Made by a program: the position numbers and the translations under genes. The notes beneath the pieces are model-generated. The model was given only the letters and a program-made list of their open reading frames with translations. It did not search any database and was not told the origin of the DNA. This document shows, in pieces, positions 12,547 through 16,535 of a stretch of 64,000 bases of DNA. Origin of the DNA: a bacterium (lineage in GTDB: Bacteria > UBA8248 > JACPRG01 > G963555815); assembly GCA_963555815.3 (NCBI GenBank), contig CAUVWX020000001.1, positions 800,001 to 864,000 on the forward strand, written 5' to 3'. The number at the start of each line of letters is the position of its first letter. Position 1 is the first letter of the stretch.

Positions 12547-13275
12547 TCAAGACCTCCGCTTTCCCCTTAGCCGAGGCGCGCTTTTCTCTCCGGGCAGGTT
12601 TTTTAAGGGATAGACGCATTCTTTCATAAGAGGGCATTCCCAACAGTGGGGTTTTCTCGCCTGGCAGATATATTTGCCGAACTTCCACATGTGGATGTGG
12701 GTGGAGTAGGCCTTTCCCGGCGGAAGGAGGGCGGCCATCTCAAAGTGGGCTTTTGCGGCCGAGCAATTTTCGGGGATGAGGCCGAGCCGCAGGCAAACCC
12801 GGTGGACGTGCGTGTCCACGGGAAACGCGTCCTTCTCGAAGGTGAACATCAGGACGACGCTCAGAGTTTTTGGGCCGATCCCTTTGAGGTGCCCAATAAC
12901 CTTCTGAGCCCCCTTCAGATCTAGATCTTTCAGGAAGTCGGCGGAAAGCTCCCCGTGGGTCTTTTTTAGCCAGCGCAAAAGATCCCGAATGCGGCGGCTT
13001 TTTTGCCCCGCCAGGCCCCCCGGTCGGATGGCTTTTTCGATGGCCCGGGGGGAGGCGCGCATAACGTCTTCCCAGCTGGAAAAACGCTCCCGTAGGCGCC
13101 CGTAGGCCAGGTCGCGGTTCGCGTCCGTCGTATTTTGGGAGAGCATGGTGAGGATGAGGGAGCTCAGGGGGTCTCGCCCGTCCGGCCGCCACCTGACCGG
13201 CCTAAAGAGCGAGGACAGGACAGAGATGACCCGCCGGGTCTTTCTCTTCAGTTCAGGACGGGTAGGGGTCGCCAT
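12547..13275 (-). CDS. nth: Endonuclease III-family HhH-GPD DNA glycosylase with 4Fe-4S motif
   Basis: LSQNTTD, KGIGPKT (HhH), FPVDTHVHR, C-x6-C-x2-C-x5-C. Confidence 0.9.
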   Translation of the reverse strand: MATPTRPELKRKTRRVISVLSSLFRPVRWRPDGRDPLSSLILTMLSQNTTDANRDLAYGRLRERFSSWEDVMRASPRAIEKAIRPGGLAGQKSRRIRDLLRWLKKTHGELSADFLKDLDLKGAQKVIGHLKGIGPKTLSVVLMFTFEKDAFPVDTHVHRVCLRLGLIPENCSAAKAHFEMAALLPPGKAYSTHIHMWKFGKYICQARKPHCWECPLMKECVYPLKNLPGEKSAPRLRGKRRS

Positions 13276-13336
13276 GGCGATTATATAGTTAACAAACCCA
13301 CTATTAGTTTAAAGCATTGAATGCATTTATAATTAC

Positions 13337-13486
13337 TCATTTCTTCTTACGCCCTTTCCCGCCCTTTTTCGGCTTGTTTGGTGGTGGCTTCGCCTTCAAG
13401 AGGTCGCTGACCACCTCCTCAAAGGGCAAGCCCTCAAAGGAAAGAGGCCCCTTATCCCCCCTTTTGGATCTTTTCGTCTGAGCCAT
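13337..13486 (-). CDS. 49-aa basic micro-protein (IS passenger)
   Basis: Hand translation MAQTKRSKRGDKGPLSFEGLPFEEVVSDLLKAKPPPNKPKKGGKGRKKK; GGGGGA SD-like upstream; below the ORF-track cutoff. Confidence 0.65.
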   Translation of the reverse strand: MAQTKRSKRGDKGPLSFEGLPFEEVVSDLLKAKPPPNKPKKGGKGRKKK

Positions 13487-13581
13487 CACACATCCCCCAA
13501 AAAAGCTATCAGTTTTTTCTTAACACAGGTTGATTAGACTACTAGTATTAGACTAGCCTTACAGTTCTGAAAGGGGGAACC

Positions 13582-14031
13582 ATGATTAGACTTTGGATAG
13601 GTGATGTGAAAGTTGAGTGCGACACCCCTGCGGAGGCCTCCGAAATTGTCCGGCTGGTGGGGTCTCAGAGGCAGAGGCGCTCTTCTCAGAGGTTTCCATC
13701 CGAACTTCTTCAGAATTTAGCAGCCGGGCTTTCATCTGCCCCTCCACATGGGCTTGAGGTTCCGTTTCTCCAGACAATCACAGCGTCTGGGAAAGGGGTC
13801 TCTTCGAAAGACCTCGCCTCAACGCTGGGAGTAAAAAAAACGACCGCTTTGGGCCCCATTTCCAGAGCCACAGAAAAGACGTTGAGGAGCATAGGGGAAG
13901 AGCCCCGGGATGTCTATGGGATTGACAGAGAAGGACAAGTCCCTTTATGGGTTCCTGGCCCTAGAGCAAAAGAGGCTTTGAGAAAGATGGAAGGATCTGA
14001 AGGAGATCAAATGCACAGACCCCAAAAGTAA
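13582..14031 (+). CDS. Hypothetical protein, possible C-terminal winged HTH (IS passenger)
   Basis: AAGGGGG SD; GVSSKDLASTLGVK..ALGPI helix-turn-helix-like pattern. Confidence 0.6.
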   Translation: MIRLWIGDVKVECDTPAEASEIVRLVGSQRQRRSSQRFPSELLQNLAAGLSSAPPHGLEVPFLQTITASGKGVSSKDLASTLGVKKTTALGPISRATEKTLRSIGEEPRDVYGIDREGQVPLWVPGPRAKEALRKMEGSEGDQMHRPQK

Positions 14032-14137
14032 AACAGCCCCCGCCAGCTGATACTGGCGAGGGCTATTATACAGGAGAACCCCGGAGGGCCTCTCCCTTAC
14101 ACATATTCACTTTAGGCCCTCTCGGTCCTCCTGTCAA
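14024..14137 (-). ncRNA. Candidate ~80-nt sRNA unit (promoter plus terminator)
   Basis: TTGACA(14137-14132)-N17-TAAAGT(14114-14109); hairpin 14035-14064 followed by GTTTTACTTTT on the minus strand. Confidence 0.4.
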
Positions 14138-14216
14138 GGAGGCAATCGTGAGGGCCTTTCTGTTTATGTGGCCCGGACCCATCCGTGCACCAACCCTTTC
14201 CTAAAAACGGGTCGGT

Positions 14217-14305
14217 GCGCCAGTGGTGGAATCGGTAGACACGGCGGGTCTGGGACCCGCCATTTAGCGAGGATATGTTGGTTCGAATCCGGCCTAGCGC
14301 TCCCA
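14217..14305 (+). tRNA. Atypical tRNA-like element: Leu-type body, TGG (Pro) anticodon, possibly pseudo
   Basis: Acceptor GCGCCAG/CTAGCGC (1 mismatch), D-arm GTG-GAATCGGTAGA-CAC, anticodon stem GCGGG/CCCGC with loop TC-TGG-GA, 16-nt variable region, T-arm GTTGG-TTCGAAT-CCGGC, 3' TCCCA. Confidence 0.7.
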
Positions 14306-14352
14306 CTCTATTTTTTCACTGGTCTTTTAGATAGTCAAATACATCAAGAGAG

Positions 14353-15279
14353 GTGGATGTTATGGAAACCGACATCACCAAATTGGCCGAGTATTTCTCG
14401 GATGAGAAAAAGGCCATTGAGCTAATCGAAAGGCTCCGCTGGCCTGGGGGCCCTGTCTGCCCCCATTGTGAGTCGAAAAAAGCCTATCGGCTTCGAGTAA
14501 AGAGCTTAAGGCGGAAACTGTGGAAATGTGCCAAGTGCCGAAAACAGTTTTCGGTGATGGTGGGAACCATCTTTGAGGATTCCCATATACCCCTTAAAAA
14601 GTGGCTGGTGGCAATCTATCTTATGTGTTCCTCGAAGAAGGGCATTAGTGCTAATCAGCTTCATCGGAGCCTCAAGCTAACTTACAAATCTACCTGGTTC
14701 ATGTGCCATCGAATCAGATATGCCATGAGTCAGCCACTACTAGCAGACAAACTCAAAGGAATCATAGAGGCCGATGAGACCTACATTGGCGGAAAAGCGA
14801 GGGGGACGGTCGGACGAGGGGCAGACAAAAAGGTTCCGGTCCTGGCCCTAATTGAACGTGGCGGTAGGGCAAGGTCTTTTCTATTGCCTAATGTGGGCGG
14901 GGGGACAATCCGTTCCTTAATCAAAGGTCATGTAGAAATCGAGGCGGAGATTATGACAGACCAGTTTCCCTCCTACAAAGGGCTAGGCAAGCATTTTGCG
15001 GGCCACCATGTTGTTGAACACGGAAAGCAATATGTCCGAGGCATTGTGCACACCAACTTCGCTGAGAGCTATTTTAGCCTCCTCAAGCGGGGCATTATGG
15101 GCACCTTTCACCATGTCAGCGAAAAGCATCTGCCTTTCTACCTGGCCGAGTTTGACTTTAGGTGGAATGAGCGAGAACTTTTAGATGGAGACAGAACCGC
15201 AGAGGCCATCAAATGTATCGAGGGAAAAAGGTTGACCTATAAACAGCCAAGGAAAAGACAAAACAGGAAATCTTGGTAG
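14353..15279 (+). CDS. IS1595-family (ISXO2-like) DDE transposase
   Basis: Zn ribbon CPHC..CAKC; EADETYIGG; IMTD; HTNFAESYFSLLKRGIMGTFHHVSEKHL..YLAEFDFRWN. Confidence 0.95.
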   Translation: MDVMETDITKLAEYFSDEKKAIELIERLRWPGGPVCPHCESKKAYRLRVKSLRRKLWKCAKCRKQFSVMVGTIFEDSHIPLKKWLVAIYLMCSSKKGISANQLHRSLKLTYKSTWFMCHRIRYAMSQPLLADKLKGIIEADETYIGGKARGTVGRGADKKVPVLALIERGGRARSFLLPNVGGGTIRSLIKGHVEIEAEIMTDQFPSYKGLGKHFAGHHVVEHGKQYVRGIVHTNFAESYFSLLKRGIMGTFHHVSEKHLPFYLAEFDFRWNERELLDGDRTAEAIKCIEGKRLTYKQPRKRQNRKSW

Positions 15280-15314
15280 TGGGTCGTTTTGAGAGGTTCT
15301 AAGGACCAGGTGGG

Positions 15315-15350
15315 GCTTGCGAAATGTCAATTAATTGACATTTCGCAAGC
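15315..15350. repeat. Perfect 36-bp spacerless palindrome
   Basis: GCTTGCGAAATGTCAATT|AATTGACATTTCGCAAGC. Confidence 0.95.
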
Positions 15351-15359
15351 TGGATGGGG

Positions 15360-15610
15360 TTATTTGAGGGACAGAAGGTGTTTTTTGGCGCAGTTTAAGT
15401 CAATTTAGAGATAGTTGATCATCTGTTTAATATGACCAATCTCAATTTCCGGATTTTCACTATTTCGTGGTCCCATTGGGAAACTCCGATATATTTTTCC
15501 ACCATAGCTTATCCAAATTCTATGCTCCTTTACCTGTCAGGTGTGTTCTGGCGCACATTCCTTTAGCATTTTTTGATTTTTCTTATACGAGCCGTGCCCC
15601 TGGTAGTCAC
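15360..15610 (-). pseudogene. HicA-like toxin pseudogene (1 frameshift, 2 internal stops)
   Basis: Reconstruction: MTTRGTARIRKIKK/MLKECAPEHT*QVKEHRIWISYGGKIYRSFPMGPRNSENPEIEIGHIKQMINYL*IDLNCAKKHLLSLK; begins 3 nt after the upstream gene's stop. Confidence 0.55.
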
Positions 15611-15613
15611 GGC

Positions 15614-16090
15614 TCAAGCAGCTAATGCTTTCTCTAGGTCTAAGATGTTGTTTTTTGCCGCCAGCTTTCCGACCCTTCTAATTTCAGGATAAGCAGATAA
15701 TTCAGCCTTCCGTCTAATCATTCCTTCGACCTGAATATCGCCGCTTCTAACCCTCTCGACAGCCTTCCACCATTTCTTGTCTGCATCCTTGGAGGTTTCC
15801 CCAACAAACCTGTGGACCTCTCTTTTAAAAGCGGAAAAATCTGCTGAACCCGCTGAAATATCAAACAAAACGGCTTTGAACGTTTGGAGGATTTGAAGAT
15901 AAGCCTCTCCCTCGTTCTTACCACTACCAGCGATGTCTCCTGGCTGAACGCCATACATCCAAACGTCTTCTTTTCCTTCCTGCACGGCAAGAACTCGCCC
16001 GCGAATATATACATCAACTAAAAACCCATTTCCTTCCACTTTTTCTCTAAAAGTCAAGAATAGTGGCAAATGGCCTCTGGCTGCAGCCAT
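15614..16090 (-). CDS. Hypothetical protein, HicB-like antitoxin candidate
   Basis: AGGAGG SD; VWMYGVQPGDIAGSGKNEGEAY resembles the HicB N-terminal P-G-x3-G-x3-E-A motif. Confidence 0.55.
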   Translation of the reverse strand: MAAARGHLPLFLTFREKVEGNGFLVDVYIRGRVLAVQEGKEDVWMYGVQPGDIAGSGKNEGEAYLQILQTFKAVLFDISAGSADFSAFKREVHRFVGETSKDADKKWWKAVERVRSGDIQVEGMIRRKAELSAYPEIRRVGKLAAKNNILDLEKALAA

Positions 16091-16136
16091 ACGCTACCTC
16101 CTTTTGGGTATTCTCGAATTTCCCAGAATAGCAATG

Positions 16137-16165
16137 AGTATATCTCTACCAACTATGGCTGTCAA
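16137..16165 (-). promoter_or_regulatory. Sigma70 promoter for the HicB-like gene
   Basis: TTGACA-N17-TATACT. Confidence 0.7.
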
Positions 16166-16223
16166 TGGTGCTTTTGTGGAGGGAATTTCATGGGGGCATG
16201 GCGGATTTCCTCCAAGTGGGGTC

Positions 16224-16322
16224 TTGACAAACCAACCCCTTTTCCGTAAATTCCCCTACGGTGAAGGAAATCTCTTAGTCTTTTGTGGCCGGAAACCGCT
16301 GGCGGGCGGTTCCGGCCTTTTT
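16224..16322 (+). ncRNA. Candidate ~65-nt sRNA unit (promoter plus intrinsic terminator)
   Basis: TTGACA(16224)-N17-TAAATT(16247); hairpin GGCCGGAAACCGC/GCGGTTCCGGCC 16287-16317 then T5. Confidence 0.45.
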
Positions 16323-16535
16323 GCTATTAGGGCCGGATCCTCTGCTTCCTTCTACAACTCCTCGTTCACCAAATAAAATATAGCCTAGAATGGTGCGCCC
16401 GTCAATGGTTGTCCTTTTGGGTTTGTGAAAGGGATAATCGCCGTCGCCATAGGCGAAAATGTCACAAAAGTAAGGGTTTAGGCCCATATTGTGTGTTTCT
16501 CCACAGGGTTTTCCACAAGATGTGGAAATAACCCC

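Follow-up and report, generated by a model that had tools for sequence, protein, structure and literature searches.

The window (the whole stretch of DNA that was analysed, 64,000 nucleotides long) carries an insertion sequence of the IS1595 family, within which a tRNA gene of unusual composition lies upstream of the transposase gene and on the same strand. The features of this element are as follows.

13276..16442, plus strand: IS1595-family element, 3167 bp, 48% GC against 60% in the genome, single copy
13276..13300, plus strand: left terminal inverted repeat, with an 8-bp target duplication (13268-13275) just before it
13337..13486, minus strand: Lys-rich passenger frame of 49 codons, in which three consecutive CCA codons give Pro-Pro-Pro
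13582..14031, plus strand: passenger gene, 149 aa, weak helix-turn-helix match (PF04967, E 0.002, below cutoff)
14217..14305, plus strand: tRNA gene with a Leu-type body, 7/5 acceptor/T stems, a UC-UGG-GA anticodon loop (C33) and a long variable arm
14362..15279, plus strand: IS1595 DDE transposase, 305 aa, open frame (PF12762 132 bits, PF12760 59 bits)
15614..16090, minus strand: passenger gene, 158 aa, two homologues besides itself
16418..16442, minus strand: right terminal inverted repeat, with the 8-bp target duplication (16443-16450) just after it

Assignment to the IS1595 family follows from the IS1595-type DDE transposase (215 bits against NCBIfam NF033547, cutoff 75), from the terminal inverted repeats with their 8-bp target duplication, and from an empty site elsewhere. 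The repeats are 25 bp long and imperfect, and the empty site, present in a genome of the same genus (G001) with an 8-base overlap, confirms the element ends. An earlier reading made from the sequence alone had taken the tRNA-like gene to be cargo of the element, and the target duplication and the empty site in G001 bear this out, placing the gene between repeats that begin and end at 13276 and 16442. The insertion point is the exact start codon of an endonuclease III (nth)-like gene (12547-13275; junction 13268-13276). Since the target duplication contains this start codon, the nth-like gene has been severed from its original upstream region, and it may now be driven from within the element. 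For the transposase, a start at ATG 14362 is likelier than one at GTG 14353, which falls within a Shine-Dalgarno-like tract; the 47-nt spacing between tRNA and transposase first proposed is true to the GTG, but becomes 56 nt to the likelier ATG.

The passengers gave few leads. The 149-aa gene, upstream of the tRNA, is possibly a regulator, judging by its sequence; a homologue search returned itself alone, and its atlas leads were unnamed clusters and DUF6416. The 49-codon Lys-rich frame had no family match in Pfam and NCBIfam, and comparable frames, short, Lys-rich and with runs of Pro, are seen again in L088, L161 and L182, just 3′ of the tRNA. Likewise, the 158-aa gene had no match in Pfam or NCBIfam, and HicB-like atlas clusters at 0.76-0.78 only are a weak lead. 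No synthetase gene was found among the element's genes with Pfam and NCBIfam. Just 3′ of the transposase stop lies a perfect, loopless 36-bp palindrome (15315-15350), where assemblies break; an allele from another study (X6, see below) differs at 15344-15346 within it. On the minus strand, a 10/12 promoter match (14137-14109) precedes a 16-pair terminator-like hairpin (14067-14032), which together would yield a short RNA of about 70 nt; five allele differences cluster in this stretch (14032-14137). From another promoter match on that strand (14338-14310), transcription would run antisense into the tRNA.

The cloverleaf itself occupies 14217-14301 on the plus strand, with discriminator U73 at 14301 and then CCCA. 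It is real: ARAGORN calls it tRNA-Pro(tgg), and Rfam RF00005 scores it at 40.2 bits (gathering threshold 29, E 2.8e-6). The Leu-type D arm, long variable arm, TGG anticodon and C33 described by the sequence-only reading are all present, as is the acceptor C.A mismatch, which is C5.A68. Two additional pairings suggested at the same time fared less well among 28 family members (described below). The 8-bp zipper of the anticodon arm is possible in this copy, but positions 32-38 pair in 12/28 and positions 33-37 in 10/28 members, and an acceptor of nine positions is not conserved, -1:73 pairing in 11/28 and -2:74 in 9/28. With their pairs unconserved across the family, a conserved zipper stem and a 9-bp acceptor were both rejected. 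On sequence, the normal reading of this RNA is a 7/5 tRNA with discriminator U73 and CCCA. Without modification, the strand has a fold of lower energy than the cloverleaf (z -1.0).

To which amino acid does such a body belong? The gene has the long variable arm, A20a and core tertiary contacts of a tRNA-Leu; it lacks the discriminator A73 (U73 in this copy), and in place of a Leu anticodon and U33 it has UGG and C33. It also lacks the G72 and G15:C48 of tRNA-Pro, carrying C72 and A15:U48. A model of the tRNA family scored the host's five tRNA-Leu genes at 66-74 bits, against 47 for its tRNA-Pro(UGG) and 44 for its tRNA-Pro(CGG), and in this scoring the host tRNA-Leu genes rank next to both Leu-body/UGG copies of the genome. 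As the host owns all five tRNA-Leu genes and a normal tRNA-Pro(UGG), the element tRNA fills no gap.

This copy is likely weakened by its U73. The same element at the same site was present in a run of another study (X6), whose allele rests on one contig at a depth of about 7 and shows 22 listed differences over 2071 bases: six in 1518 coding bases, 11 in 465 non-coding bases and five in the 88-nt tRNA. At four of the five tRNA differences X6 fits the family pattern (A73, two Watson-Crick variable-stem pairs and one T-stem pair); at the fifth, an acceptor pair is broken in X6. Judged against the X6 allele, our copy is decayed, with U73 and three weakened stem positions. The notion of a decaying captured tRNA, one of three options of the sequence-only reading, thus describes this copy, but not the family. 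Differences are denser in the tRNA than in coding DNA (p 3e-5), but not clearly denser than in non-coding DNA (p 0.058), and of the four differences in the transposase three affect a first or second codon position. Drift of a fixed insertion therefore explains these changes as well as host selection does.

A second Leu-body/C33/UGG gene lies in the same genome (C1 981508-981595, minus strand); its acceptor and T stems pair perfectly, and both A73 and CCA are present. It precedes, in sense orientation, the gene of an IS1-like transposase that scores below the NCBIfam cutoff, within an element of 1970 bp with 22-bp terminal inverted repeats that is absent from G001. Being intact, it could act in trans for the weakened copy in the window. 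A fixed CCA site was not found in IS1-like transposases (35 proteins, one alone beside a UGG tRNA). Three IS1-like loci (L354:3407-3484, L356:2542-2619 and L376:1973-2050) hold short-armed tRNA-like genes whose anticodon is GGA or TGA and whose 3′ end is common to them, and in a fourth (L348) a Leu-body tRNA is located directly downstream of the transposase.

The tRNA recurs far beyond this genome. A metagenome pattern scan, with C33 and TGG fixed by the pattern, gave at least 119 stretches; 27 of the 119 listed passed acceptor and T-stem filters, and two without D and anticodon arms were then dropped. Among the matches listed, an IS1595 transposase was found in 10/27 cloverleaf loci versus 0/92 chance matches, and in 8/16 versus 0/64 when only long-flank loci were counted. 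We aligned 28 sequences, comprising metagenome cloverleaves among the matches listed, one viral match and the two genome copies. Acceptor pairs and T-stem pairs are each 99% intact, and two-sided changes occur in 15 of the 22 tested pairs, exceeding all slid controls, in an alignment where part of the D arm was pre-set by the search pattern. A73 is found in 27/28 members, A15:U48 in 26/28 and G72 in 2/28. A one-off pseudo-tRNA is therefore refuted by a covarying family of Leu-body UGG tRNA genes within IS1595 elements. Upstream of the nearest relatives, where the earlier reading had suggested looking, the search came up empty: Rfam identified no tRNA at the 19 nearest related loci, the family model identified a single tRNA (L017, anticodon GTC), which lies downstream in antisense orientation, and ARAGORN at low threshold returned noise only.

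Relaxing the pattern yielded five U33-UGG cloverleaves among eight viral stretches, three of them beside IS1595. When viral IS1595 loci were selected by their transposase, 17/80 carried a Leu-body tRNA (at least 60 bits), with the anticodons TGG in 12 (three of which were already in the query alignment), AGG in two, TGC in two and TTA in one, and a Leu anticodon in none. Similarly, 7/18 extended genome loci carried a Leu-body tRNA (TGC 4, TGG 2, TTA 1), again none with a Leu anticodon. The tRNA of the 17 viral loci is upstream and sense to the transposase in four, upstream and antisense in four, and downstream and antisense in nine; as position and strand vary, it is a free-standing gene and not a fixed 5′-UTR element. 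In one well-supported transposase clade (SH-aLRT 100, quick tree), 19 of 22 members keep the tRNA.

C33 has multiple separate origins when mapped on the transposase tree (four changes are needed for TGGc), and 11/20 UGG elements have the canonical U33. On viral contigs (L023-L066), many of them large, phage tRNA-Leu genes with C32-C33 and ordinary Leu anticodons (TAG, AAG, GAG, CAG, CAA, TAA) are frequent. Since C33 also occurs in these phage tRNAs, we regard it as secondary, the constant feature being a Leu body with a foreign anticodon. Among 51 genomes of its phylum, the C33 pattern was found in the source genome only; in another phylum, 6/401 genomes matched the Leu-body/non-Leu-anticodon pattern, two of them real by eye, and neither of these two has an IS1595 match nearby.

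Other genes accompany the tRNA at some loci. In two cases a companion tRNA with a GGC or CGC anticodon and a body that looks Cys-like by eye stands in tandem with a UGG tRNA, and further odd companions include a short one with a UUA anticodon and a long-arm GTC one with C33; the loci with companions are L075:2266-2339, L150:1529-1601, L117:184-255 and L017:3568-3652. A gene resembling a coiled coil plus winged helix (by eye) recurs beside the tRNA in L001 (3504-4115, minus strand), L150, L185, L200, L202 and L206, in IS1595, IS1-like and prophage settings, and in L001 its frame spans the tRNA gene. In L177, a 78-codon HicA-like frame (by eye) is situated directly 3′ of the tRNA.

The codons of the transposases were examined in 130 unique near-full sequences (partial ones excluded), among them 20 UGG elements and 100 tRNA-less elements, the latter meaning that no tRNA was found within 1.5-3.5 kb. 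CCA accounts for 73/209 Pro codons in UGG elements versus 113/900 in tRNA-less elements, raw counts that kinship inflates; other A-ending codons in UGG elements are near background. In the 12 UGG transposases of the main clade, the sole fixed codon among 58 conserved degenerate columns is CCA (12/12). This column lies near the N terminus; among 97 outgroup proteins it is mostly occupied by Ile (36), Ala (13), Met (9), Val (7) or Phe (6), and by Pro in one. A UGC subclade nested in the UGG clade has lost the N-terminal CCA, with Arg or Lys at that site, and has instead fixed GCA (6/6) at a column that in the outgroup is Met (44), Ile (19), Leu (18) or Val (12), and never Ala. UGG members do have Ala at this column, yet encoded by GCA in 0/11. 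A second column of the subclade has GCA in 5/5; with six sequences only, two unrelated codons are fixed in it as well, and CCA (20/68) and TCA (17/58) are abundant in the UGC group too. As to the other anticodons, an AGG element in the clade (L223) has CCC at the N-terminal site and one outside it (L258) has CCT at both other hot spots, and of the UUA elements L269, and not L332, has a TAA stop at the C-terminal hot-spot column. Outside the main clade, linker Pro codons are CCA in 7/8 UGG elements versus 12/87 tRNA-less elements.

Pro at family-hydrophobic columns is encoded by CCA in 28/30 cases in UGG elements and 10/40 in tRNA-less elements, and GCA, taken as a control within these genes, shows no such contrast (12/89 vs 16/95). 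At conserved-Pro columns, CCA is used in 2/36 cases in UGG elements, a share indistinguishable from background (18/213). Where GCA is the cognate codon, it likewise accounts for 11/24 cases at hydrophobic columns versus 0/24 at conserved-Ala columns. Two or more hot-spot CCA codons are found in 17/20 UGG elements versus 3/110 others, the hot spots having been defined on the same data as tested; the exceptions are three UGG elements without two such codons and three tRNA-less elements with them. On well-supported branches there are five independent pairs, about four concordant and none opposed (sign-test median p 0.125), so that the phylogenetically independent test is underpowered. The general pattern is that the element keeps its cognate codon at positions normally hydrophobic in the family, and that the codon moves when the anticodon changes.

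At the C-terminal site, tRNA-less proteins most commonly have Leu (38/97) and then Pro (21/97, six by CCA), and one tRNA-less clade favours T-ending codons there, which makes a DNA-level constraint possible. Pro occurs naturally at this site, Ala is fixed at the UGC site throughout the UGG clade, and Arg or Lys takes the N-terminal site in the UGC clade; Leu is thus not strictly required anywhere. An AlphaFold model of one clade transposase (pLDDT 71) places the N-terminal Pro in a short helix at the cut end. In the transposase of the window the relevant codons are these.

14734..14736, plus strand: CCA codon 125, in the linker that follows the helix-turn-helix region; UGG elements keep CCA at this site
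15247..15249, plus strand: CCA codon 296, in the C-terminal motif, a hot-spot site

They are the only two CCA codons among its ten Pro codons, and both coincide with hot spots (linker and C-terminal); the strongest, N-terminal site is absent, and there is no overall CCA excess (2/10).

Bacterial LeuRS recognises A73, the tertiary core and the variable arm of its tRNA, and not the anticodon (PMC2377443, PMC9976931). For the A. aeolicus enzyme, A73 is reported to be crucial, its change to U lowering leucylation 45-fold, and changes of A35 to be without effect on aminoacylation (PMC2377443). Bacterial Pro identity requires G72 and G15:C48, and the determinants of ProRS include G35, G36 and A73 (PMC9976931). 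By these rules, intact members of the family should bring leucine to CCA codons. We propose, at a probability of roughly 60%, that a tRNA with a Leu body and UGG anticodon, borne by the insertion sequence and likely charged with leucine, recodes the CCA codons of its own transposase, whose output would likely depend on the tRNA. In such a scheme, host LeuRS would charge the element's tRNA, the charged UGG tRNA would place Leu at the CCA codons kept at fixed transposase sites, and transposase output would be gated by the element's own tRNA. The Leu form, or the decoding of a rare codon by a Leu-tRNA, may raise this output, with the direction of the effect uncertain, and C33 likely damps host-wide mistranslation or toxicity. 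That the Leu form is the more active one, and the tRNA hence an ON switch, falls just short of an even bet. Tentatively, and at somewhat below even odds, the insertion sequence may possess a private genetic code, made up of a tRNA charged with Leu whose anticodon can be switched (UGG, AGG, UGC, UUA) and the matching codon at hydrophobic transposase positions; active transposase would then be made only when this tRNA outcompetes the host's cognate tRNA (for example, in proline starvation or tRNA attack), and hosts would fix changes that weaken it. Where the sequence-only reading had offered a decoy or miscoding tRNA, miscoding is supported for the family by the retained Leu identity elements, the non-Leu anticodon and the co-varying transposase codons.

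The same marker codons could instead serve as a brake or rate sensor, with a weak (C33) or uncharged tRNA slowing the ribosome, or with Leu inactivating the transposase as copies rise. The separate origins of C33 are in keeping with this, as are the reduced translational efficiency of position-33 changes in yeast (PMC3664417), the location of the strongest site near the gene start and the absence of a strict need for Leu at any site. We nonetheless consider a brake unlikely: the cognate codons lie at hydrophobic and not at conserved Pro or Ala columns, a placement more readily reconciled with Leu being tolerated or useful than with its being harmful, and about half of the UGG elements have U33.

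Less probable again is a tRNA that acts as a decoy or antidote (against an anticodon nuclease or a tRNA-modifying toxin), or as a general mistranslation or defence factor, with the codons a by-product of tolerated Leu-to-Pro changes. Allo-tRNAs are found near toxin-antitoxin genes and a transposon-related gene (PMC5389517), the HicA-like frame after one member and the weak HicB-like lead for the 158-aa gene point the same way, and single CCA codons at conserved hydrophobic columns in L336 and L326 resemble tolerated changes. Against this, tolerance leaves unexplained both the synonymous 12/12 CCA across divergent proteins and the new fixed GCA after an anticodon switch, and no toxin gene is common to the loci examined.

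There is very little likelihood that the tRNA is charged with proline and merely supplies a rare codon. Its G35 and G36, and A73 where present, are ProRS determinants (PMC9976931), and CCA is rare in the host (10% of Pro codons), but G72 is all but missing from the family and G15:C48 absent, the same body also bears UGC, AGG and UUA anticodons, and the host owns a tRNA-Pro(UGG). A neutral captured tRNA-Leu, in decay and functionless in every element, is similarly improbable. The two alleles of our locus differ at 5/88 tRNA positions, each difference harming one allele, at a rate not below that of non-coding DNA (11/465); for the family, however, this reading is contradicted by covariation, by fixed non-Leu anticodons and by retention of the tRNA throughout most of the well-supported transposase clade. 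The faintest prospect is that of a cis element, the remaining option of the sequence-only reading, in which RNase P cleavage or a leader fold sets transposase mRNA stability: the window, the second copy and 4/17 viral loci share the upstream-sense arrangement, and co-transcript processing would incidentally create an mRNA 5′ end, but the tRNA's placement varies, with the opposite strand in 13/17 viral loci, the zipper and extended acceptor are unconserved, processing needs no conserved anticodon matched to codons, and no tRNA lies upstream of the 18 nearest full transposases first collected.

We know of no identified target gene for any known mistranslating tRNA, and hence why bacteria keep them is an open question. 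Under recoding of the transposase by its neighbouring tRNA, the target is predicted to single codons of an adjacent gene, and natural anticodon switches accompany matching codon switches, which makes the proposal directly testable by presence or absence of the tRNA combined with a CCA, CCG or Leu codon. If true, it would constitute a new layer of transposition control, by recoding. Calls of tRNA-Pro, tRNA-Ala or suppressor tRNA inside insertion sequences would then be mis-annotations, and the host of such an element may place Leu at CCA codons proteome-wide.

The IS1595 family is known to include passenger-carrying subgroups, and the element at 13276-16442 shares the zinc-ribbon DDE transposase, the inverted repeats of about 25 bp, the 8-bp target duplication and the passenger genes of that family. 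A tRNA passenger matched to the codons of an IS1595 transposase was not found in the largely open-access literature searched. In Streptomyces, bldA, a single tRNA-Leu(UAA), gates genes that keep its rare TTA codon; bldA is a normal cognate host tRNA, whereas the tRNA described here is mobile and non-cognate, and would change the amino acid. The tRNA-ProX genes of Streptomyces and Kitasatospora (tRNA-ProA, -ProN and -ProT) likewise are a natural bacterial mismatch of body and anticodon, with several anticodons per body and mis-annotation by anticodon (PMC10404621). They are, in effect, the mirror image, combining a Pro body with Ala, Asn or Thr anticodons beside a ProRS isoform gene (PMC10404621), in contrast to a Leu body with Pro, Ala or stop anticodons, inside an insertion sequence without a synthetase gene and with its codons fixed in the transposase; the terms 'transpos' and 'mobile' are absent from the main text of that paper (PMC10404621). 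The allo-tRNAs and irregular tRNA polycistrons (Mukai et al., PMC5389517; reviewed in PMC7609411) also have long variable arms and non-cognate anticodons, and their missense decoding has been demonstrated in E. coli; they, too, sit near transposon-related genes (PMC5389517). Their stems are 8/4 or 9/3 and their identity Ser or Ala (PMC5389517), unlike the 7/5 stems, with covariation in both, and Leu identity of the present family, and they are not known to match codons of a transposase (PMC5389517). By analogy, then, the element's tRNA would work like tRNA-ProX and the missense allo-tRNAs, yet it fails the defining features of both, and it is best described as an apparently undescribed, recurrent variant of the mistranslating tRNAs, with a specific predicted target.
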